Assembly: GCA_019309045.1 (NCBI GenBank)
Contig: JAFDGZ010000008.1
Coordinates: forward strand, 309-64,308
Direction of reading: 5' to 3'
Length of the DNA: 64,000 bases
From: Deltaproteobacteria bacterium
GTDB lineage: Bacteria > Desulfobacterota > Syntrophobacteria > BM002
Position 1 is the first letter of the stretch; the number at the start of each line of letters is the position of its first letter. The notes under the pieces were generated by a model. That model ran no database searches. It was not told the origin of the DNA and saw nothing but the letters and a program-made list of their open reading frames with translations. Both the position numbers and the translations under genes were made by a program. This document shows positions 4,806-49,764 of the stretch, one piece after another.

Positions 4806-5480
4806 ATGCCCAGTATTGTATCTGTTGTGGGCAAGTCTAAAGTTGGCAAGACAACCTTTATCGAGAAACTCGTGCCCGAGCTGCAGCGACGAGGATATCG
4901 GCTGGGTACTATCAAGCACGATGCCCACGATCACGCCGACATTGATCATCCGGGAAAAGACAGTTGGCGGCACCGCCAGGCAGGCGCCCAGACCGTGGCC
5001 CTCAGTTCACCTTCCAGAATCGCCCTCATCAAAGAGGTGCCGGAAGAACTGGATCTGGACAGCATCGTTGCCATGTATTTCCAGGATGAAGATCTGGTGC
5101 TCACCGAAGGCTACAAGGGGAGCAACAAGGCAAAGATCGAGATCTTCCGCAGTGAAGTGCATGAAGAGCTGCTCTGCACCCCGGCAGATAGACTGCTAGC
5201 TGTGGTGAGCGATGTGTCACTGCCTGTGGAGGTGCCCTGCTTCGACCTGGAAGATGTGGCAGGAGTAGCGTCCTTGCTGGAAGAGCGCTTTCTGCGTGCC
5301 GCCTCTGATACAACCATGATCGTCCGGCTGGACGGCAAAAGGCTTCCCATGAAATCTTTTGTCAGGGACTTTGTGGTGGGCGGCATTACTGGCATGCTTT
5401 CAGCACTGCGAGGCTACAGAACTCCCAGCAGGATAGACATAGCTATTCGCTTGCCGAAGCAACAGAGAGAATCCACATGA
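4806..5480 (+). CDS. mobB: molybdopterin-guanine dinucleotide biosynthesis adaptor protein MobB (with a C-terminal extension)
   Basis: P-loop VVGKSKVGKTTFIEKL plus a TIKHDAHDH segment typical of MobB. ATG at 4806 is preceded by AGGAGG at 4792-4797. It overlaps mobA start with an ATGA junction. Confidence 0.85.
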   Translation: MPSIVSVVGKSKVGKTTFIEKLVPELQRRGYRLGTIKHDAHDHADIDHPGKDSWRHRQAGAQTVALSSPSRIALIKEVPEELDLDSIVAMYFQDEDLVLTEGYKGSNKAKIEIFRSEVHEELLCTPADRLLAVVSDVSLPVEVPCFDLEDVAGVASLLEERFLRAASDTTMIVRLDGKRLPMKSFVRDFVVGGITGMLSALRGYRTPSRIDIAIRLPKQQREST

Positions 5481-9425: not shown

Positions 9426-10427
9426 TCAAGGCTCCTGGCTGGAGAAGCGGATGCCGCCTTCGCTGCCATCTGCGGCCTCCAGGGAAAAAACTTTGATGAG
9501 CTCCATCAGCGGCCTGCCAAAAAGAAAATCCATTTCCGCTGCTCTTTGCGGCAGGCTCTCGGCAAAAGAGGCCCGCCAATGAGCGTCGGCCTGCAGCATT
9601 GCCAACAATTGCTCGCCGCCCTGCCGCCCTCCAGTTTCACGGAACCGCTGACACGCCAGGTACAACTGCTCCACCCCGCAGCGCTCCTCGTGACTCTGGA
9701 GCAGATTCAGTACCTCCCTGTTCTGCTGGAACAGATCACGGCGGCTCAGCTTCCGTCGCTGCCACAATCGTTCCAGTTGCCCGGGATCCCAGCATGCCTG
9801 CACGCGGCACTGCAGGGGGCGATGCTGGTATAGGGCGCAGCGGCCACGGTCAGCCTGGTAAAAAATGCACTGAGTCGTTCCCTGCTGCTGTTTGACTTTT
9901 ATCAGTTCCACTGGCAGCCTTGCCAGCCTGCCTGCCAGGTTGAAGTTGACGAGTTCACCCTTTCTCAGGGTGTAGAGCTGGCCGGGCAAAATCACGCCCT
10001 GCTGCAGAAGATCCACATCTTCTGGATGCAGTGAGGGAGTGGATCTTCGACAGCACTCCCCACAGCGAATGCAATACGGCCTGCGCCGGTAGGCTGCCTG
10101 CACCATGAAGCTTCTCAGCTGCTGCCAACCGCGCTGCCGCTGAGCTGCATCAAACCTGTCCCAGGACCGCTGGAGGCTCAGATAGCATTCGTCTTGCTGC
10201 ACCTCGGCAAGGAGTTCCGCAAAACAGTCCGGGACGCGCAGCTCGGCAACTACCTGCCGCAGGGCCGTCTTCACCGCGGCCAGGAGTCCGCTGCTGGTGG
10301 TTGGCAAAACAGCCTGTTCTCTATCCATGAGCACTTGCTCCGGTGTGTACTCCAGGTACGGCCAGGATCTTTCGTCTTTCCCGCCCGCCGCCAGGCAAAG
10401 CAGCAGCAGGCGGCCTCCCTGGCACAT
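9426..10427 (-). CDS. hypothetical protein with a CxxCxxCC cysteine cluster (YkgJ/UPF0153-like putative Zn/Fe-chelating domain)
   Basis: CIRCGECCRRS motif and several further Cys residues. The longest ORF reaches 10547 and would overlap the recG 3' end. An internal Met at 10427 is chosen, so the start is uncertain. Confidence 0.45.
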   Translation of the reverse strand: MCQGGRLLLLCLAAGGKDERSWPYLEYTPEQVLMDREQAVLPTTSSGLLAAVKTALRQVVAELRVPDCFAELLAEVQQDECYLSLQRSWDRFDAAQRQRGWQQLRSFMVQAAYRRRPYCIRCGECCRRSTPSLHPEDVDLLQQGVILPGQLYTLRKGELVNFNLAGRLARLPVELIKVKQQQGTTQCIFYQADRGRCALYQHRPLQCRVQACWDPGQLERLWQRRKLSRRDLFQQNREVLNLLQSHEERCGVEQLYLACQRFRETGGRQGGEQLLAMLQADAHWRASFAESLPQRAAEMDFLFGRPLMELIKVFSLEAADGSEGGIRFSSQEP

Positions 10428-35823: not shown

Positions 35824-35898
35824 GCCGGCGTAGCTCAGGGGTAGAGCAGCTGATTCGTAATCAGCAGGTCGCGGGTTCGAATCCCATCGCCGGCTCCA
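35824..35898 (+). tRNA. tRNA-Thr (anticodon CGT)
   Basis: Cloverleaf readable. Acceptor GCCGGCG/CGCCGGC, anticodon arm GCTGA-TTCGTAA-TCAGC giving anticodon CGU, T-loop TTCGAAT, 3' CCA encoded. One C-A mismatch in the T-stem. Confidence 0.8.
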
Positions 35899-35927: not shown

Positions 35928-36251
35928 TCAATAATGATAACGTGCTTGAATAAAATCGACTCTATCCCGGCTTACTACGTAGACCAGCCTATGTTCCTGG
36001 GTGATTCTGCGAGACCAAATGCCTGGTCCAAGAAACTTTAGTGGTTCTGGTTTACCCACCCCTTGAAAGGGATCACGCATTACTGCTTCTATGAGTTTAA
36101 GAATCCGAAGAGCTGTCCGACGGTCTGTTTCGACCCAGTAACGCAGATCCTCTCTGAACTCAACCTGGAATACAGCTTGCCTCTTTCTGCTGCTTTGAGG
36201 CGATCCCTTTCTCCGCTTACTCAAAGCCGACCTCGCTGCGAAGTTCTTCAA
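35928..36251 (-). CDS. yoeB: YoeB/Txe-family mRNA interferase toxin
   Basis: C-terminal WSRRITQEHRLVY...RYHY matches YoeB. The ORF begins with TTG at 36251 and overlaps yefM by 35 nt, so the true start is probably further downstream. Confidence 0.75.
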   Translation of the reverse strand: MKNFAARSALSKRRKGSPQSSRKRQAVFQVEFREDLRYWVETDRRTALRILKLIEAVMRDPFQGVGKPEPLKFLGPGIWSRRITQEHRLVYVVSRDRVDFIQARYHY

Positions 36252-36495
36252 TAGTTTGTGGTGTACCGATTCCTTGCCGAACTCGATTAAGAGCAGAGAG
36301 CAACCGCTTCGTATTGGCAGGTGAACGAAGCAAATGTACAGTTTCGAGCAGGCCAGCGAGTTCCTCGGCGGCTATCATAGCGACATCCTCACTTCCACGC
36401 CGTTGGATAATTACAACCTCTCTATTCTTGGTAACTTCATCAATTAAGGAAGCGAAATTTGCACGGGCCTTGGTGTATGTTGTTTGAATGGCCAT
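36217..36495 (-). CDS. yefM: YefM/Phd-family antitoxin
   Basis: 92 aa. N-terminal YefM/Phd fold pattern (TKARANFASLIDEVTKNREVVIIQRRG). Directly precedes yoeB. Confidence 0.8.
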   Translation of the reverse strand: MAIQTTYTKARANFASLIDEVTKNREVVIIQRRGSEDVAMIAAEELAGLLETVHLLRSPANTKRLLSALNRVRQGIGTPQTIEELRSEVGFE

Positions 36496-36762: not shown

Positions 36763-39060
36763 CTACTTGTTCATGCAGACCCGCCGTACTTCGGAGAGGT
36801 CCGTGACTCCCTGGAGCACCTTCTGGATGCCGTCCTGCTTGAGAGTGGTCATCCCTTCCTTCCGCGCCTGCAACCGGATCTCCCCCACAGGTCGGCGAAG
36901 CTGGATCATCCGTTTTATCTTTTCGCTGCCAGTGAGCAGCTCGTGGATGCCCGTGCGGCCGAGGTAGCCCGTATTGTTGCATTTCTCGCACCCCACAGCC
37001 CTGTAAAGAACAAGGTCTGAGGAATATTTCACACCGAGGCGGCGGAAATCATCTATGCCATATTCTAGGACCAGGGTGCGAAAATCATCCTTGGAAGGAT
37101 GATAGGGCTCCCGGCAATGTTTGCACAGAATGCGGACAAGGCGCTGGGCCAGCACACCTAGCAGAGCATCGGCGAAATTGAAGGGATCCATACCCATGTC
37201 CAGGAGTCGGGTGATGGTCTCCGGTGCGCTGTTGGTGTGCAGGGTGGTGAGAACCAGGTGGCCGGTGAGCGAGGCCTCGATACCCATAGCCGCTGTTTCC
37301 TCATCGCGCATCTCGCCCACCATGATCACATCGGGGTCGCAGCGCAGAAAGGCCCGCATGGCCCTGGCAAAGGTCAACCCTATCTGGGGTTTGACCTGCA
37401 CCTGGCGAAGACCCGGCTGGGTGATCTCTACTGGATCCTCGGCAGTCCAGATCTTCTTACCCGGGGTGTTGATATGGGCCATTGCCGCGTGCAGCGTCGT
37501 GGTCTTGCCAGAGCCGGTGGGGCCTACCACCAGGATCATACCATAGGGATACTGGATAATCTGCCGGAAGAGTTCCAGATTCCTTTCAGTCATGCCCAGG
37601 TCCTTGAGGTCCCTGGTCTCTCCTGAAGTGAGGATCCTGAGTACCACATCCTCCAGACCGCTGGTAGTCGGCATGGTAGCCACCCGCAGCTCAATCTTTT
37701 TGCCAAATAGCTTGCCAAATCTGATCTTGCCGTCCTGGGGCAACCGTCGTTCAGCAATGTCCAGATCAGACATGATCTTGATGCGCGACACCACCGCCCT
37801 CTTGTAGCCGTAGGGGACAGTCTGGTAAGGAGTGCAGACGCCATCCACCCGAAATCTAATCTGCATGCTGCGCCGGCCGGGAAGCGGCTCGAGATGGATG
37901 TCTGATGCCCCTCTGTTGTACGCATCAACTATCATTTTGTTGACGAACTGAACCACCACATTATCGGTTTCGTGGACCAGTTCCTCTTCTTCCTGCTCAG
38001 CCTCGTTTTCTACTTCCAGTCGTCCGAGAATGTCGACTATGGAGGTCTGGGCGAGGTTGGACCCGTAAAAGTAATCCAGATATTGCAGGATGTCCTCTTT
38101 GAGGCCCACGCAAAACTCAATGTTGTTCGTCCTGAGAATGTTCCGCGCCATGTCCCGCTTCAATAGATGATTGGGATCGTCCATCAGCACAGTGATACAG
38201 CCATTTTTCTTTTCCAGGGGAACCCAGAGGTTGGATCGCAGGTAGCTCTCTTTCAGATTCTTGAGCAATTCTCCGGGGATGACATGTCTGCTGCTGAAGG
38301 GTATATAGCGCGTGCGGTAGAAATGACTTAGAGCTGTGCCCAGATCATGCTTGCTTATGGCATAATTTGACAGCAGAATCTCCTCCACGTTCATTCCCTT
38401 GCTGCAGGCCTTGGCAATGGCATCTTCGAGCTGCTCCTGGGTCAACAATCCCCTGCTGATGAGGTAGTCGAATTTGGTCGGTCGCCGTCTAGAAGTCTTG
38501 AGCTGGTGATAGAGGGCGTCACCGAGAACGCCGGAAATCTTCTGGGCCAGTTCTTCGTCGGCAGCTGAAAAGGGTGTGCCATCTTTCTTGTTGATCAGTT
38601 GCAGCACTCCCAGAGTGAAGCGATGAAAGCGAATTGGCACCACTAGCATCTGCTCGGTGCGATATCCCGTCTTGGCGTCCCATCTGCGATCGAACCTGAG
38701 CCGGGGGTGGATGCTTCTCAGCTCACCAACATCGTAAGCATTCTTGATATTGACAATTCTACCAGTCTTGGCCACATAACCGGCAACACTCCCCTCGGAA
38801 ATGGGCAGTCTGATTTCACTGATTTCGTGTCCCACCTTGAAGCGCGAGTAGATTTCTTTGGCAGCCACATCCACCACATAGACAGTAATTCGGTCTGCCT
38901 GGGTGAGGCTGAGGAAACGATCTTTGAGGTAGAGGATAATTTCATTGAGGCTGAAAGCGGAGTGCATTTCCTCTGAGATCTCATGCAGCACCGATCTGGA
39001 AGTAAGCGAAGTCTCAGCCTTGTGGAGGTGCGCATGTTCTCCTGCTTTTTTGACTGCCAT
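36763..39060 (-). CDS. GAF-domain-containing GspE/PilB/MshE-family secretion ATPase
   Basis: 765 aa. N-terminal GAF-like region, then a T2SE N-terminal domain, then the ATPase core with Walker A VVGPTGSGKTTT, His-box TLHTNSAPETI and a tetracysteine CxxC...CxxC motif. Confidence 0.85.
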   Translation of the reverse strand: MAVKKAGEHAHLHKAETSLTSRSVLHEISEEMHSAFSLNEIILYLKDRFLSLTQADRITVYVVDVAAKEIYSRFKVGHEISEIRLPISEGSVAGYVAKTGRIVNIKNAYDVGELRSIHPRLRFDRRWDAKTGYRTEQMLVVPIRFHRFTLGVLQLINKKDGTPFSAADEELAQKISGVLGDALYHQLKTSRRRPTKFDYLISRGLLTQEQLEDAIAKACSKGMNVEEILLSNYAISKHDLGTALSHFYRTRYIPFSSRHVIPGELLKNLKESYLRSNLWVPLEKKNGCITVLMDDPNHLLKRDMARNILRTNNIEFCVGLKEDILQYLDYFYGSNLAQTSIVDILGRLEVENEAEQEEEELVHETDNVVVQFVNKMIVDAYNRGASDIHLEPLPGRRSMQIRFRVDGVCTPYQTVPYGYKRAVVSRIKIMSDLDIAERRLPQDGKIRFGKLFGKKIELRVATMPTTSGLEDVVLRILTSGETRDLKDLGMTERNLELFRQIIQYPYGMILVVGPTGSGKTTTLHAAMAHINTPGKKIWTAEDPVEITQPGLRQVQVKPQIGLTFARAMRAFLRCDPDVIMVGEMRDEETAAMGIEASLTGHLVLTTLHTNSAPETITRLLDMGMDPFNFADALLGVLAQRLVRILCKHCREPYHPSKDDFRTLVLEYGIDDFRRLGVKYSSDLVLYRAVGCEKCNNTGYLGRTGIHELLTGSEKIKRMIQLRRPVGEIRLQARKEGMTTLKQDGIQKVLQGVTDLSEVRRVCMNK

Positions 39061-39453
39061 GTTACGCTCCCACTCAGAGGCGCCCTCTCAGATGCCAACA
39101 GGCGTCAGGCGCACTTTCACCATTTATGAGCGCAGGTGCTCTTCGAATCATGACCTTTCCCGAGCTGCACCTTGTAGACGGCAACCTGGCAACGGCACAG
39201 TGGTCAATCTGGCCAGCGGCCCACCTCTCTTCTAGCCTCACCCTCGGTCCGCATAGCCGGAGAGGAGGTGGAGTAGACAGAAAGAGCCGCCCCAAATATT
39301 GAGGCGTGGTCAAACTTTTGAGGCCAATTTCGACTTGGCAGGCCACAGCCTTCCAGACCTCGCAACGCTTCAGCAAACATTCAGGCATGCTGCCTGGTAG
39401 CAGCTCGTACTAGATATGCAATAATAACAGATATATGAAGAATTATCAAGCAA

Positions 39454-40308
39454 TCAGTTGCAGGGCGCCGTGAGATGGTTTAGTTTTTTTACGCATCTTT
39501 GGATGATTTTTGGTTTAATAACATTTACTTGCTTAAAGTAACCAGCCAAAAGTGCATTGTCACAAATGATATTTATCAAACGTGGGTAACCTCTGGAAAA
39601 ATTATATACCTCGCGAATCGCCTTTCGGGTAAAAATCTCCCTGGTGGCCCCTGCAAGATGCAAACGGTGTTCTATGTAGTCCTTTGTCTCTTGTTCAGTT
39701 AATGGTTCTATATTAAAGCTAACTTCGATTCTCTTTTGGAATAGAGTAAAATCCTTTTTCGTTAATAATTGCGATAGTTCATTTTGCCCTACCAGATAAA
39801 TGTTTATTGCCTTGCGATAACTCTTTGTCGTTGGTAAATGTGAATCAGTATTATGCAACAAATTATAATTAGAAAAAATAAGTAATTTTTCTAATATAGA
39901 AGGCGATAACTTGTGTGCTTCGTCAATAATCAAAATAACTCTTCTATTAAATTTACATGCTATTCTAAGAAATGAACTAAAATAGGTAATAAATTTGGAT
40001 TCATATTTAAATCTCTTGGCGAAATTAAATGAATCAGCAATTAAATTATAGAAAGACAGTGTATCTAGCGTAGGATTCGCAATAGTAGCCACAAAAGCAT
40101 CATTTTCCAGACCATTAATAAACGCATTCAATATGGTGGTTTTACCCGTACCAATGTCTCCAGTCAGGACTATCAGTGTTTTGTTTTTCTTATGAGCCTC
40201 CTGCAAAGTGGTCAATGCCTGGCGATGCTTGCTCCCGAGCCAGAGAAAATCTGGATCAGGACTTATCTGAAAGGGTAGTTTGTGCAAATTGTAATGGGAA
40301 CAGTACAT
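39454..40308 (-). CDS. MshM/ExeA(GspA)-like AAA+ ATPase (short form, ATPase domain only)
   Basis: Walker A GDIGTGKTT, Walker B ILIIDEAH, and the GQNELSQLL and RGYPRLINIICDNALL segments typical of ExeA/MshM. 284 aa. Markedly AT-rich. Confidence 0.8.
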   Translation of the reverse strand: MYCSHYNLHKLPFQISPDPDFLWLGSKHRQALTTLQEAHKKNKTLIVLTGDIGTGKTTILNAFINGLENDAFVATIANPTLDTLSFYNLIADSFNFAKRFKYESKFITYFSSFLRIACKFNRRVILIIDEAHKLSPSILEKLLIFSNYNLLHNTDSHLPTTKSYRKAINIYLVGQNELSQLLTKKDFTLFQKRIEVSFNIEPLTEQETKDYIEHRLHLAGATREIFTRKAIREVYNFSRGYPRLINIICDNALLAGYFKQVNVIKPKIIQRCVKKLNHLTAPCN

Positions 40309-40765
40309 GGCGCCGGGCCTGACGTCTCTTTAGGAACCTCACGGTGTTTTTGTGCGCCAGAGAGCAGATCTGTCTATTTCACCACGCCCCTGCAAACACT
40401 GGACTACACTGTGTCACACCCTCACTGCCCTGTCAAGCGCCCTGGTTTACAGTTGTAGCCGCTCGGGTCTGCTCCCCATGTCAATCAAGCCTGACTGCTC
40501 TGCAGTCGTGCTTTGCCTTGCAGCCTGCCCCTCTGCTTGGCCGCAGAAGTGGCGGGCAGTGACACGACATCAGTCAGCAACCAACAAGGCAGCAAGAACC
40601 ATTTATGGCAAACTTCCCGAGGATACCTACCGTAAGATACTATCGTAACTACTTGATTTATATACATAACAAAATATTGACTCGCCTCGAACCATCATCT
40701 TTCTGCCGACGCAGCCGATGGTACCTAAATACTCCCCGCGAGGGGCAGACAAGCTGACATAATTA

Positions 40766-41740
40766 TCAACAGGAGCTTGCACGTAACTCGCTGAGCAGTT
40801 TGTGAAAGGATTCAGAGGAGAAATAGACAACTTTTGTATGAGGACCAAAGGAAATTTCATCACCATCTGAGAGAAGATATTCTTTTTCAGGAATTAACTT
40901 ATTCTTGTTAACAAAAGTACCATTAGCTGAAGCAGAATCAACTAGATAACACTTCTTCTCAGACAAATTAAAACGGATATGGGCATGATTACGTGATACC
41001 AACTTATTATATAATATTATATCATTAGTATTTGCTCTGCCAATATAGATCGATATGTCATCTACATCAGAAGCTTGTTTTGTAATTTCTATTACAGTAG
41101 TACTCAGTGTCCTGGGATCTATAAGCACATTAGACTCATTCTCTGCTATTTTACCGTCGTCAATAATTTCTGTTGTAAATTGCAGAACAGAATTCTTATC
41201 AAAGATAGTCTTAGATTTTTCGACGAGAAATCCGCCTGGAAATATCTCTAAAAATTGCTGCTTTTGCATCTCCCCAAATTTCTCCAGGTAATAGCCAACG
41301 CTCTTGTGTATGCTCTCAACCGTTGCCCGAGATGCTTCAACTTGTTCAAATTGTCTGAAATTTTTGTCAAATCGTACGCCAAACCCACCATGTTCCTCAT
41401 CGATTCTCACTATAGTTCCCCTTCCCTGCAGCCCTATGGTTCTCTCCTGGCCAGTAAAATCGGGAGGGAGGAGGAATGTAATGACTACTGGCTTGCCGAC
41501 TTCACATGAGCGGTATTGACTGGTCTTGATGAAAGCTCCCCCCTGGCTGAGGTTCTCGCTCATTCCTTCTATTACCAGGTCGGTGGAATCAACGCAGTGC
41601 AGCAGCAAGGGAAACTGGCGCCCTAGTCGTCTCTCTTTTCGACGGTCAGTTCCATTCATCATGTTTGCTGTTTCATTTGAATGGCTCATACACGGCAACG
41701 TACCCCTTTCTGCACAGCGATCTCCTGCATGCGCGGGCAT
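40766..41740 (-). CDS. PilZ-domain (N-terminal) plus FHA-domain (C-terminal) fusion protein
   Basis: PilZ motifs RRKER and NLSQGG. FHA motifs GR...SRNHAHI...NGTFVN. The true start may be the internal MM at 41662/41659. AT-rich. Confidence 0.75.
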   Translation of the reverse strand: MPAHAGDRCAERGTLPCMSHSNETANMMNGTDRRKERRLGRQFPLLLHCVDSTDLVIEGMSENLSQGGAFIKTSQYRSCEVGKPVVITFLLPPDFTGQERTIGLQGRGTIVRIDEEHGGFGVRFDKNFRQFEQVEASRATVESIHKSVGYYLEKFGEMQKQQFLEIFPGGFLVEKSKTIFDKNSVLQFTTEIIDDGKIAENESNVLIDPRTLSTTVIEITKQASDVDDISIYIGRANTNDIILYNKLVSRNHAHIRFNLSEKKCYLVDSASANGTFVNKNKLIPEKEYLLSDGDEISFGPHTKVVYFSSESFHKLLSELRASSC

Positions 41741-42027
41741 GAATTATTGCCAGAAAAGTGGAGTCATCAAAACCGTGCACTCGCAAGAATTTTAAATATA
41801 TTACAAAATTCGATCAAGGTTACAAGGAAAAAATACATCTTCTCGTTGATTCTCATCCCCGCAGTTGAACCTACAGCCTGCAAATTTCCACAAAAGTTGG
41901 CGTGATAAGACAACCGTCTGTGCCGGCTGTCCCGGACAGCAATCCGCTCCACATACCAACTCACGCAGGCTGAGCTCTTATAGCAGGGATCTCCATCCCC
42001 CAGGTTTTTGGCAGAAAAATATGCAGT

Positions 42028-43101
42028 TCACAAGACCTGCCGTTGGTCGACTTCGTACTGTTTTATTTTATAAAGCAAGGCCTTATAGCTGATTTGCAGG
42101 ATACTTGCAGCTTTCTTGCGGTTCCAACCAGTCTCTATGAGAACGGATCTTATCAACTTGCTCTCAGCCTCCTGCACCGCCCTCCTCTTCACATCCTTGA
42201 GAGAAGGAAATTGTCTTCCAGCTGTTTCATCCAGAAGGCTTTCATCCGGCGAGGTGACAACTTTGGGCTTCTGCCGAGACTCAAGGACTCCCGACGCTCT
42301 CGCCATAAGCTCCGCTTTAACTGCAGGCCAGTCACCGAGAAGAATGAGGCGGTTGACGGTGCTCCTGAGTTCTCTGACGTTTCCCGGCCAAGAGTACTCT
42401 CGAAGGAACTGCACCACGCCGTTGTCATCAAAATGAAACCGGGGTCTTTCCACTCTGGCGGCAGATTGTTGGGCAAAATAGTGAATGAGAGGCTCGATGT
42501 CCTCTTTCCGTTCGCGAAGGGGCGGGATGTATATGCGAATTATGTTCAAACGATAATACAGGTCCTCTCGGAACAATCCCTGCTTGATGCGATGCTCTAT
42601 CTCTTGATTTGTGGCGGCAAGCACCCAGCAATCTACCTGGATGTCTTTTTTACCCCCCAATCTAGAAAACCGCAGATCTTGCAACACCTGCAGCATTTTC
42701 GCCTGGAGCGGCAGCGGCATATCGGCAATTTCGTCTAACAGAATGGTACTCTTGTGCGCCAGTTCGAATTTCCCTATCTTCCTGGCCTCAGCCCCTGTGA
42801 AGGCTCCTTTTTCATAGCCAAAGAGCTCACTTTCGAGCAGTTGTGCCGGGATGGCAGCACAATTAACTTTTATGAGGAGCCTGTTCCGGCGGTCTGACAT
42901 GAAATGGAGGGCATGAGCAACCACTTCCTTGCCAACGCCAGTTTCTCCACAGATCAGCACGTTGAGGTCACTATTGGCCACATGGCGAATAAGGTCTTTG
43001 ATTTTCCGGATAGGCTGGCTCTGGCCCACAAAAAAATGTTCGCCAAACTGCATGGTCGCTCCCAGTGGGAAATCCTTACTGCGATCAGTGACCTGTACCA
43101 C
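42028..43101 (-). CDS. sigma-54-dependent transcriptional activator (AAA+ plus Fis-type HTH, no N-terminal sensory domain; PspF-like)
   Basis: Walker A GETGVGKE, GAFTGA motif (EKGAFTGA), Walker B ILLDEIADM, C-terminal HTH (ASILQISYKALLYKIKQY). Confidence 0.85.
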   Translation of the reverse strand: MVQVTDRSKDFPLGATMQFGEHFFVGQSQPIRKIKDLIRHVANSDLNVLICGETGVGKEVVAHALHFMSDRRNRLLIKVNCAAIPAQLLESELFGYEKGAFTGAEARKIGKFELAHKSTILLDEIADMPLPLQAKMLQVLQDLRFSRLGGKKDIQVDCWVLAATNQEIEHRIKQGLFREDLYYRLNIIRIYIPPLRERKEDIEPLIHYFAQQSAARVERPRFHFDDNGVVQFLREYSWPGNVRELRSTVNRLILLGDWPAVKAELMARASGVLESRQKPKVVTSPDESLLDETAGRQFPSLKDVKRRAVQEAESKLIRSVLIETGWNRKKAASILQISYKALLYKIKQYEVDQRQVL

Positions 43102-48597: not shown

Positions 48598-49560
48598 CTA
48601 TTCCTCCCACATATCAATTACTATCGTATAGGAAGTACAGCTGAAAGCGCCCGCCCACGGTTCCACAGCCACCCGGAAGTAGCGTGAATCATCCATGCCA
48701 CACATGCCGTCCCAGGTATAGATAATGACTTCTTCGTCGCATGCTGCCCCTTGCGAGGATTCTAAACTGCTGCACTGCTCGTCATACAGGTGGAGATCAT
48801 AGTCTCTGCAGTCAGCGCCCTGGGGGGGAGTCAAGCGAATTCGCACAGTTAAATCCTGGTCCATAAACGGTATGCAACCACTAGTCCCTTCTTCAGCTTC
48901 AAACCTGAAATAGTCCACGTCATCTTGCGGATAGATAGTCGCGGTCAAGGTGACCTCTCCATCCACCTCACGAATAGTTCCCAGATATGTAGTGTTTGCG
49001 CAAGTGTCATTGTATGAGGGGTCTAAGCATTGGGAACAGTCGGAGTCCTGTTCATCTTGCTTGCCGTCGCAGTCATTGTCGATGCCATCGTCACAGTCCT
49101 CAGAAGCCCCCGGATTGACGGCCGCCTCACTGTCGTTGCAGTCTCCATCCTGGGTAGACGTATAACCGCCCGAGGGGGCGCACAGACATCTGCCGCTGCC
49201 AGAAGTTCCATATCCGTCGTTGTCATTGTCCAGATAATACGTTGTGCAGCCAGTCGCACCCTCCTCGTCGATTTCTGCATCACAGTCATTGTCTTTGTCG
49301 TCGCAGCGCTCCTGGGCGCCAGGATAGACCTCCGGGTCACCGTCGTCACAGTCAACAGCAGCTTGGCCGCAGTTGTCCTGCTCGAAATAACCATCCTTGT
49401 CGGCATCGACACAAACCTGATCATCAGAATCCAGCAGTAGAGGAAAGATGATTTCAATCAGCGACGCCCCCCTGGCTTGAGAGAGTGTTTCCGGCATACC
49501 CACAAGAGACAAGCCAGACAACAAAAGGAAACCGACAATTACTGTTCTTCGCGTATACAC
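48598..49560 (-). CDS. secreted protein with tandem MopE-type putative metal-binding repeats (DCDD...PGA.E.CDG.DNDCDG)
   Basis: GTG start at 49560 with AGGAGG 5 nt upstream. Signal peptide VYTRRTVIVGFLLLSGLSLV. At least four Asp/Cys-rich repeats of the type described for Myxococcus/Methylococcus MopE. Confidence 0.65.
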   Translation of the reverse strand: MYTRRTVIVGFLLLSGLSLVGMPETLSQARGASLIEIIFPLLLDSDDQVCVDADKDGYFEQDNCGQAAVDCDDGDPEVYPGAQERCDDKDNDCDAEIDEEGATGCTTYYLDNDNDGYGTSGSGRCLCAPSGGYTSTQDGDCNDSEAAVNPGASEDCDDGIDNDCDGKQDEQDSDCSQCLDPSYNDTCANTTYLGTIREVDGEVTLTATIYPQDDVDYFRFEAEEGTSGCIPFMDQDLTVRIRLTPPQGADCRDYDLHLYDEQCSSLESSQGAACDEEVIIYTWDGMCGMDDSRYFRVAVEPWAGAFSCTSYTIVIDMWEE

Positions 49561-49764
49561 CCCAACCTCCTTTCCGACGCCGCATATCGAAATAAGACAT
49601 TTTATCCCTTGGTAGTTTTGCACCGCTTCACTGAGATGCTCAGACAAAGCAAATTTTGGGCCATCTCACCGGAGTGACAGGCATTATTTTAACTATTCCC
49701 GTTCTATCGAATTTATGCTACTAGAGAAAAATATTTGCAAAAGTCTGCGTATCGGGGGACTGCA

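Follow-up and report, generated by a model that had tools for sequence, protein, structure and literature searches.

A conserved PilZ-FHA protein family of Desulfobacterota and its possible role as a separate input of a sensor-less sigma-54 activator

Which partner is served by a bacterial protein that joins a receptor domain for the second messenger cyclic di-GMP (c-di-GMP) to a domain that reads phosphorylated threonine? The question is raised by a reverse-strand gene, referred to here as PilZ-FHA, in a 64,000-nucleotide stretch of contig JAFDGZ010000008.1 from an uncultured Deltaproteobacteria bacterium (Desulfobacterota, Syntrophobacteria); the whole of this stretch is called the window. 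Directly upstream of the gene lies a sigma-54 enhancer-binding protein (EBP) that carries no sensory domain of its own. The reading tentatively preferred here, with a probability of roughly 0.4, is that PilZ-FHA acts in trans as the separately encoded c-di-GMP input module of this bare activator. The architecture of the protein is presented first, followed by the case for and against the activator as its partner, and the coordinates of all features are collected in Table 1.

Two domains joined by a conserved linker

The gene encodes a PilZ domain fused to an FHA domain, as an earlier note on this DNA had read from a handful of motifs. Both domains score above the curated thresholds of Pfam: the FHA domain (PF00498) with E=1.5e-18 and 67.4 bits against a cut-off of 20.7, covering profile positions 2-67 of 67, and the PilZ domain (PF07238) with E=1.1e-7 and 32.5 bits against a gathering cut-off of 22.5. 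A weaker match to Yop-YscD_cpl (34.2 bits), a relative of FHA, overlaps the FHA match. The motifs on which the earlier reading was based fall inside these domain alignments, and comparisons of 25, 99 and 91 aligned homologs show little or no variation in them. In the PilZ domain (residues are numbered in the 324-residue open reading frame, ORF, unless the 298-residue form is stated), at least 90% of 25 sequences keep R34 and R38, and neither residue varies in the alignment of 91 sequences; in the second motif, S65 and G68 do not vary either, and N63 is conserved in at least 90% of the sequences. The FHA pocket consists of G234 and R235, of S249 and H252, which are supplied by the sequence SRNHAH, and of N273, G274 and T275, all of them invariant among the homologs and aligning residue by residue with their equivalents in the FHA domains of Dun1 and Rv1747. 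With these residues intact, the PilZ domain would be competent to bind c-di-GMP, and the FHA domain is predicted to read phospho-threonine.

Structure prediction recovers two separate folds. The AlphaFold2 (AF2) model of the 298-residue form, with a predicted local distance difference test score (pLDDT) of 73.7, starts with a beta-barrel and continues through a helical and then a disordered stretch to an FHA sandwich, behind which lies a C-terminal helix. Over the FHA domain, where the pLDDT reaches 84-94, the beta-sandwich characteristic of the fold is recovered, and the full-length model matches the FHA structures of OdhI, GarA, Rad53 FHA1, DgcB and FhaA in Foldseek with a probability of 1.00. 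A sequence-profile search of the PDB returned the same FHA set together with a weak PilZ match (E=0.022). Since the FHA matches swamped the full-length Foldseek list, the N-terminal 119 residues (27-145) were modelled separately, which yielded a six-stranded antiparallel beta-barrel with a pLDDT of 81.8 and a predicted template modelling score (pTM) of 0.73. The top Foldseek matches of this model are all PilZ domains, from BcsA, PA0012, Alg44, VCA0042, MotI, MapZ and YcgR, several of them in complex with c-di-GMP (entries 4i86, 8u0i, 4xrn/4rt0, 2rde, 5vx6, 5xly and 5y6g on top). As both domains are significant, their motifs lie inside the alignments and both folds are recovered, the two-domain architecture is real.

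Some PilZ proteins, such as the Xanthomonas PilZ protein and PA2960, do not bind c-di-GMP, and the motifs lost in these proteins are precisely RxxxR and (D/N)xSxxG. The modest Pfam score and the weak profile match in the PDB would fit a degenerate PilZ domain of this kind, retained as an interaction module in an otherwise ordinary FHA adaptor. This explanation is very unlikely, considering that both motifs are intact and nearly invariant across the family and that the predicted fold matches PilZ structures with bound c-di-GMP.

The domains are connected by a region of about 100 residues that the earlier note had missed, as it had the sensor-less state of the neighbouring EBP. This linker is as conserved as the domains themselves, with the blocks KNFKQFE, Y.LA.YLS, P.GFLVEKS, FDK.V.FQF.T and ARVIEI, and matches no Pfam family at E<=1 apart from noise. 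It opens with helices (pLDDT 81-88), which are followed by a conserved segment of low confidence (GFLVEKS...FDK..V.QF.T), where residues 151-181 of the 298-residue form have a pLDDT below 50 despite their conservation. The same region is also present in short paralogs that lack the PilZ domain.

Homologs were collected in two ways, by a word-indexed search of clusters at 90% identity and by comparing a profile exhaustively with 1.84 billion representatives. The first of these yielded 114 clusters; in about 95 of them the proteins have 290-320 residues and both PilZ and FHA domains, with 35-50% identity over more than 88% of the length. The family thus comprises more than 100 clusters at 90% identity, with a typical length of about 295 residues, and an FHA domain was found in 99 of 99 members scanned and a PilZ domain in 93, the remaining 6 being natural short forms without PilZ. 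At the 50% identity level, the exhaustive search found a few full-length clusters and, besides these, variants: TPR-PilZ-linker-FHA proteins of 460-490 residues, a single TPR-PilZ-linker-FHA-PilZ protein of 610 residues, a distant group of 456-residue proteins in which a long spacer separates PilZ from linker and FHA, and short linker-FHA forms. Among species-representative genomes the family is found only in uncultured Desulfobacterota, labelled as Syntrophobacterales, Desulfobacteraceae or "Deltaproteobacteria bacterium" metagenome-assembled genomes; a lone contig assigned to Shewanella probably reflects a binning error. A single genome can carry as many as three full-length paralogs along with one short form. 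The pairing of the two domains, previously noted as unusual, is indeed rare overall. It is no isolated fusion, however, but the hallmark of a conserved family of Desulfobacterota with several paralogs and with TPR and second-PilZ variants. Databases name its members only "FHA domain-containing protein" or "FHA domain/PilZ domain", and in the literature searched neither a PilZ-FHA protein nor a PilZ subunit of an EBP is described.

Among the known PilZ adaptors and receptors, YcgR, MapZ, PlzD/VCA0042, PA0012, MotI/DgrA, Alg44 and BcsA share the beta-barrel and the RxxxR and (D/N)xSxxG motifs with PilZ-FHA. Like MapZ and YcgR, PilZ-FHA is small, soluble and expected to act by binding a partner. 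It differs from all of these receptors in having an FHA domain and a linker of about 100 residues, and the partner suggested by synteny, a sigma-54 activator, is not a known PilZ target. The novelty lies in the output module, so far undescribed for a PilZ receptor, and in a plausible new class of partner; the PilZ and FHA families themselves are known.

Table 1. Features of the PilZ-FHA locus, in window coordinates
Feature	Position	Strand	Details	Basis
PilZ-FHA, maximal ORF	40766..41740	-	324 aa, stop in coordinates	ORF list
PilZ-FHA, likely real coding sequence	40766-41689 or 40766-41662	-	307 aa, per NCBI record, or 298 aa, per most homologs	
PilZ domain	41363..41647	-	aa 32-126 of 324-aa ORF	Pfam PF07238, AF2/Foldseek
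RRKERR	41627..41644	-	holds RxxxR c-di-GMP-binding motif (R34, R38)	
NLSQGG	41537..41554	-	(D/N)xSxxG c-di-GMP-binding motif (N63, S65, G68)	
Conserved inter-domain region	41051..41362	-	aa 127-230; no Pfam match	alignment, AF2
Invariant threonine T190	41171..41173	-	T164 of 298-aa form; candidate phospho-site	alignment of 99 sequences
FHA domain	40844..41047	-	aa 232-299; G234-R235, S249, H252, N273-G274-T275	Pfam PF00498
Predicted C-terminal helix past FHA	40772..40816	-	H283-297 (298-aa form); F312/F315/L316 conserved	AF2
Bare sigma-54 EBP, putative PilZ-FHA partner	42028..43053	-	AAA+ with GAFTGA, lid, HTH_8; 341 aa from family-consistent start; ORF to 43101	
GTGCACGGTTTTGATG	41765..41780	-	degenerate counterpart (GTGCAC-N4-TTGAT) of spacer element	intergenic alignment, motif search
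Two sigma-70-like promoter matches	41817-41789 and 41770-41743	-	span 41743..41817; consensus matches only	consensus scan
Shine-Dalgarno AGGAGA and GTG upstream ORF	41686..41726	-	AGGAGA 41726-41721; 9-codon out-of-frame ORF 41715-41686	read from sequence
MshM/ExeA-like AAA_22 ATPase	39454..40308	-	GC 0.35; AAA_22 3.7e-16; TIGR03015 196 bits, below cut-off of 324.5	
GAF-MshEN-T2SSE (PilB/GspE/MshE-like) ATPase	36763..39060	-	T2SSE 4.3e-125, MshEN 2.9e-11, GAF 5.6e-11	

The neighbouring activator as a putative partner

On the reverse strand, the sigma-54 EBP is followed by PilZ-FHA, a 457-bp spacer, an MshM/ExeA-like AAA_22 ATPase and a GAF-MshEN-T2SSE ATPase. The earlier note had correctly placed the gene between the EBP (ORF 42028-43101) and the MshM-like ATPase, but these two flanks differ in their recurrence, as the EBP is found again beside homologs and the ATPase never is in the loci examined. 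The EBP is recognized by Pfam through Sigma54_activat (1.6e-65), AAA_lid_14 and HTH_8. It belongs to a family of 333-345 residues in which the AAA+ domain starts close to the N-terminus, near residue 7 (MD.CDQLLIG.SQ), and no receiver, GAF, PAS or FHA domain is found in this family.

The bare EBP is the only recurrent neighbour of PilZ-FHA among the genes that flank it in the window: such an EBP stands directly upstream not only here but also in 15 or more further loci. EBPs with 63-72% identity to that of the window lie directly upstream and on the same strand in loci L017, L053, L055, L057 and L141/L142 and in 10 of 80 metagenome loci. An approximate neighbour-joining tree of PilZ-FHA proteins distributes the EBP-adjacent loci over two or more branches.

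To avoid circularity, the relation was also considered from the side of the activator, with six members of the bare-EBP family picked solely for their long contigs. The adjoining gene is a PilZ-FHA gene located downstream in two of the six, a divergently oriented upstream gene for a PilZ-only protein (110-136 residues) in another two, and an immediately upstream gene for a receiver-only protein (131-136 residues) in the last two, so that the bare EBP is found beside a small signalling-input protein in every case examined. This suggests that the bare EBPs are "split" activators with interchangeable input subunits, and since small, interchangeable input domains encoded next to the EBP are what a split activator is expected to look like, the pattern supports an input supplied in trans. 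The four loci with a receiver (gaps of 20-109 bp) or a divergent PilZ-only protein are L056:4570-6026, L144:3496-5038, L143:3140-5002 and L059:424-2290. In L056, the bare EBP is additionally accompanied by genes for an M23 peptidase, a cNMP-binding protein and a bactofilin. The lone PilZ proteins were also considered as specific relatives of PilZ-FHA, an idea discarded because their similarity is only generic, which counts against the proposal, as do the points listed below.

If the activator is indeed the partner, PilZ-FHA would be a soluble signalling adaptor of about 300 residues, with an N-terminal PilZ domain, the family-specific linker of about 100 residues and a C-terminal FHA domain. 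Binding of c-di-GMP to the PilZ domain would alter how the linker and FHA domain engage the activator, or a phosphorylated partner of the activator, and this altered engagement would switch the ATPase of the activator and hence sigma-54-dependent transcription. The FHA domain might contribute a second input by reading a phospho-threonine mark. We infer each of these elements, namely the binding of c-di-GMP, the physical contact with the activator, the sign of the regulation and the role of phosphorylation.

The logic of such a system has precedents. Sensor-less EBPs can be controlled in trans, as in the case of PspF by PspA and of HrpRS by HrpV, where an activator with only AAA+ and HTH domains is encoded beside a small regulator; PilZ-FHA would follow the same logic but has no homology to PspA or HrpV. 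Binding to the activator itself is a known route from c-di-GMP to sigma-54-dependent transcription, as with FleQ, VpsR and Nla24. FleQ and VpsR differ from the present proposal in that there the nucleotide binds the EBP, whereas PilZ-FHA would be a separate subunit with a putative interaction. FHA domains, in turn, are known from myxobacteria, where they are fused to EBPs as sensors, and from one diguanylate cyclase, DgcB, which has an FHA domain as its input. The FHA-EBP fusions, reportedly described in Myxococcus by Jelsbak et al. in 2005, use FHA as the input of the EBP, and in logic PilZ-FHA together with a bare EBP would be a split version of them. If the proposal is true, it would represent a third design, in which the c-di-GMP receptor is a detachable PilZ subunit of a sigma-54 activator that also reads phospho-threonine. 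Should the EBP turn out not to be the partner, what stands is still a defined, unannotated family of candidate c-di-GMP receptors with a new conserved linker. As the family is compact, its motifs are clear and its candidate partner is obvious, the hypothesis can be tested in vitro although the organisms are uncultured.

Several observations weigh against the activator as the partner. Gene order alone ties the two proteins together, and most members of the family are not beside an EBP. Other clades are instead found among cell-wall enzymes, in two contexts that are equally conserved and whose gene identities were read from sequence. In the first, a gene for an M23 peptidase and sometimes an 81-residue ORF precede a Cys-rich PilZ protein of 157 residues and then PilZ-FHA; in the second, PilZ-FHA is followed by a D-Ala-D-Ala carboxypeptidase and a PilZ protein of 138 residues (L001-L013 and L027, and L014, L020, L022 and L062-L095, for the cell-wall-enzyme contexts). 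In the case of the closest homolog, P0002, the upstream gene is amidase-like. Neither among the 150 best representatives nor among the 120 best relatives of the EBP was a fusion of PilZ-FHA and EBP found, the variable linker of the EBP family has no conserved threonine that could serve as an FHA docking site, and a motif scan of the 64-kb window returned no Hanks-type kinase. A second small PilZ protein, of either the Cys-rich 157-residue or the 138-residue type, is almost always present in the cell-wall-enzyme contexts, which hint at a link to the control of the envelope or of cell shape.

The adjacency of the two genes could also mean that the EBP regulates PilZ-FHA and not the reverse: the EBP would activate a sigma-54-type promoter in the spacer, and the protein made from it would act on an unrelated phosphoprotein elsewhere in the cell. 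The spacer between the genes is kept at about 265-290 bp in most loci, and in five of them (L017, spacer 1560-1837; L071; L098; L141, spacer 5027-5288; L053, spacer 9709-10000) it contains a conserved element, (A/T)G(T/C)A(C/T)-N5-TTGCA, at -129 to -143 from the start codon. This element is laid out like the -24/-12 elements of a sigma-54 promoter, with a perfect TTGCA in the homologs. It is preceded by a conserved AT-rich block and followed by a GC-rich GGGGCGCC block. The element has AG or TG in place of the near-invariant GG doublet, though, and a search for the canonical GG-N10-GC found none upstream of 15 PilZ-FHA genes and none in the locus of the window. There, moreover, the counterpart of the element is degenerate and sigma-70-like promoters are present, and the short spacers of L055 and L057 (46-99 bp) lack the element altogether. 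This reading is judged unlikely as an explanation in itself; it is compatible with an input role of PilZ-FHA, as a feedback loop similar to that of the Psp system. Within the upstream spacer of the window, no credible RNA element or repeat was found. The best sigma-54-promoter-like match of the whole window, TGGCCCAAAATTTGCT, lies elsewhere, at 49648-49663 on the reverse strand, where it abuts the listed TTG start of ORF 48598-49647, whose product carries MopE-type repeats with putative metal-binding function.

The linker threonine and the question of phosphorylation

The earlier note had gone further and proposed that the protein integrates c-di-GMP with Ser/Thr-kinase signalling. The part of this claim that concerns the reading of phospho-threonine agrees with the intact binding residues, but the part that requires a kinase finds no counterpart in the motif scan of the window. 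The only kinase and phosphatase genes linked to the family, coding for an RsbW-like kinase and a PP2C phosphatase, are located beside the short paralogs without PilZ. These paralogs, of about 185 residues with only linker and FHA, belong to a tightly conserved operon (L033-L049; for instance L036:5606-11886) that, as far as sequence reading allows its putative assignment, codes for an 841-residue ABC-type ATPase, a cNMP-binding protein, an RsbW-like kinase, an RsbV-like STAS protein and the linker-FHA protein, with a divergently transcribed HAMP-PP2C phosphatase. It looks like a partner-switching module ending in an FHA protein. The putative phospho-site of its STAS protein is a serine (DYISSAG), and an FHA domain would not be expected to read phospho-serine.

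A possible phospho-site is present within the proteins themselves. T190 is invariant in 99 sequences and falls in the conserved linker segment that AF2 cannot order. The residue at position +3 is I, V, L or A in the full-length members and E in the short forms, in which the equivalent of T190 is kept as VET[IT]SE. As a candidate phospho-site, T190 might bind to the FHA domain of its own protein. The FHA domains of OdhI and GarA and that of DgcB bind their own phosphorylated tails, and these proteins are the nearest solved FHA relatives of PilZ-FHA. The family might thus consist of general phospho-adaptors gated by c-di-GMP and inhibited, in the manner of GarA and OdhI, by a linker phospho-threonine in cis or in trans, with targets that differ from paralog to paralog and include EBPs, cell-wall enzymes and others. 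A kinase would modify T190, and c-di-GMP on the PilZ domain would shift the balance between the bound and the unbound state of the FHA domain. The occurrence of up to three paralogs per genome in differing contexts would fit this idea, as would the kinase, STAS protein and phosphatase in the operon of the short paralogs. It is nonetheless considered somewhat unlikely: no kinase was identified for the full-length proteins, the threonine is absent from the distant 456-residue variants, its +3 residue differs between short and long forms, and a conserved threonine could be merely structural. The OdhI model of NCBIfam (NF041660) moreover gives only 33 bits against a cut-off of 200.

GarA and OdhI are similar to PilZ-FHA in having a single C-terminal FHA domain after a flexible, conserved segment that bears threonine, and they provide the closest solved FHA structures. 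They differ in being actinobacterial, and therefore from another phylum, and in lacking PilZ, while the long form of PilZ-FHA has no ETTS motif and no PknB/PknG-type kinase was seen for it. The other family models scored similarly: FhaB (NF049868) with 33.9 bits against a cut-off of 125, TagH/Fha (TIGR03354) with 32.1 against 120.25, and TIGR02266, a myxococcal PilZ-like paralog, with 26.6 against 68.7. With scores so far below the cut-offs, PilZ-FHA falls outside the OdhI/GarA, FhaB, TagH and TIGR02266 families. Similarity to Fha/TagH of type VI secretion systems (T6SS) and to the FHA domain of YscD from type III secretion systems is generic for FHA, and no T6SS or other secretion-system genes were found among the neighbours of PilZ-FHA in the window.

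The other relative, DgcB from Bdellovibrio, is an FHA-GGDEF protein that likewise couples FHA to c-di-GMP, and its FHA domain is among the best matches in both sequence and structure (6hc0/6hc1/6hbz). DgcB makes c-di-GMP in response to a phosphopeptide and thus stands on the input side, whereas PilZ-FHA, which lacks a catalytic domain, would stand on the output side as a receiver of c-di-GMP. Of the published connections of FHA to c-di-GMP, the one in DgcB, at the level of synthesis, is the nearest (PMC6733907).

The threonine and the activator can be brought together in a bolder scheme, a split sigma-54 system of Desulfobacterota whose inputs are a receiver, a lone PilZ protein or PilZ-FHA, the last working as a dual switch in which c-di-GMP and a phospho-threonine of its own linker, read by its own FHA domain in the manner of GarA, together determine whether the activator is turned on. 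This combined scheme is improbable, and the role of PilZ-FHA as a trans-acting c-di-GMP input of the bare activator is preferred without it.

Translation start, base composition and downstream genes

The annotated start of PilZ-FHA at 41740 had been doubted for want of a ribosome-binding site, and rightly so: no Shine-Dalgarno sequence stands in front of this ATG, and the -10 hexamer of the second sigma-70-like promoter match ends 3 nt before it. The first residue of most homologs aligns with M27 (MMNGTDRRKERR, ATG 41662), while the record P0001 of NCBI, 307 residues long and 100% identical, starts at M18 (ATG 41689). The true start is thus probably 41689 or 41662, and the PilZ motifs are retained whichever candidate is used. 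The sole strong Shine-Dalgarno sequence of the leader, AGGAGA, is followed after 5 nt by the start of the short GTG upstream ORF, the TGA of which overlaps the in-frame ATG 41689 as ATGA, so that translational coupling of this ORF to the M18 start is possible. The upstream ORF is not conserved in homologs, which have instead an AAGGAA-type Shine-Dalgarno sequence before the ATG equivalent to that of M27, degenerate in the window.

The gene had also been described as AT-rich, which holds for its 3' half but not for its 5' half. Its first 100 codons have a GC content of 0.51 (0.53 at third codon positions, GC3) and its last 100 codons 0.34 (GC3 0.28). The 3' half, with GC values of 0.27-0.37 and GC3 down to 0.13, belongs to a low-GC patch at 39450-41300, in a window with a GC content of 0.55. 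The patch includes the MshM-like gene, while the intervening spacer (40309-40765) has 51-55% GC; no convincing ORF, RNA family or repeat was found in this spacer. A drop of this kind within the gene is atypical, given a median 5'-3' GC3 difference of 0.03 over 111 members, and is shared by a few relatives (L053, L004). It may reflect a low-GC recombination patch or a lineage-specific trait. A recent chimera or horizontal fusion, the origin that the drop would suggest, was rejected because the full-length arrangement is kept at 35-50% identity in more than 100 clusters.

PilZ-FHA might finally be thought to control the two ATPases encoded directly downstream on the same strand, and thus to place the motor of a type IV pilus or of type II secretion under c-di-GMP control. 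The PilZ-FimX-PilB system of Xanthomonas is a precedent of this type, MshEN is a c-di-GMP-binding module in MshE, and the larger ATPase has an MshEN-type domain, although with 30.3 bits this region remains below the cut-off of 38 of the NCBIfam model for the c-di-GMP motif. Neither ATPase adjoins any homolog in 52 genome loci and 80 metagenome loci, and a functional link of PilZ-FHA to either was discarded on this account. The 457-bp spacer with its weak terminator-like hairpin further separates PilZ-FHA from the MshM-like gene, the deviant GC content of which suggests a separate ancestry, and no other pilus or secretion genes are found in the vicinity of the two ATPases. Control of these ATPases is, accordingly, extremely improbable.

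At the edge of the block formed by PilZ-FHA and the ATPases, a tRNA gene on the forward strand (35824-35895) is followed by two small overlapping ORFs on the reverse strand, at 35928-36251 and 36217-36495. The pair resembles YoeB/YefM-type toxin-antitoxin systems in sequence and, together with the tRNA gene, could mark the boundary of a genomic island.

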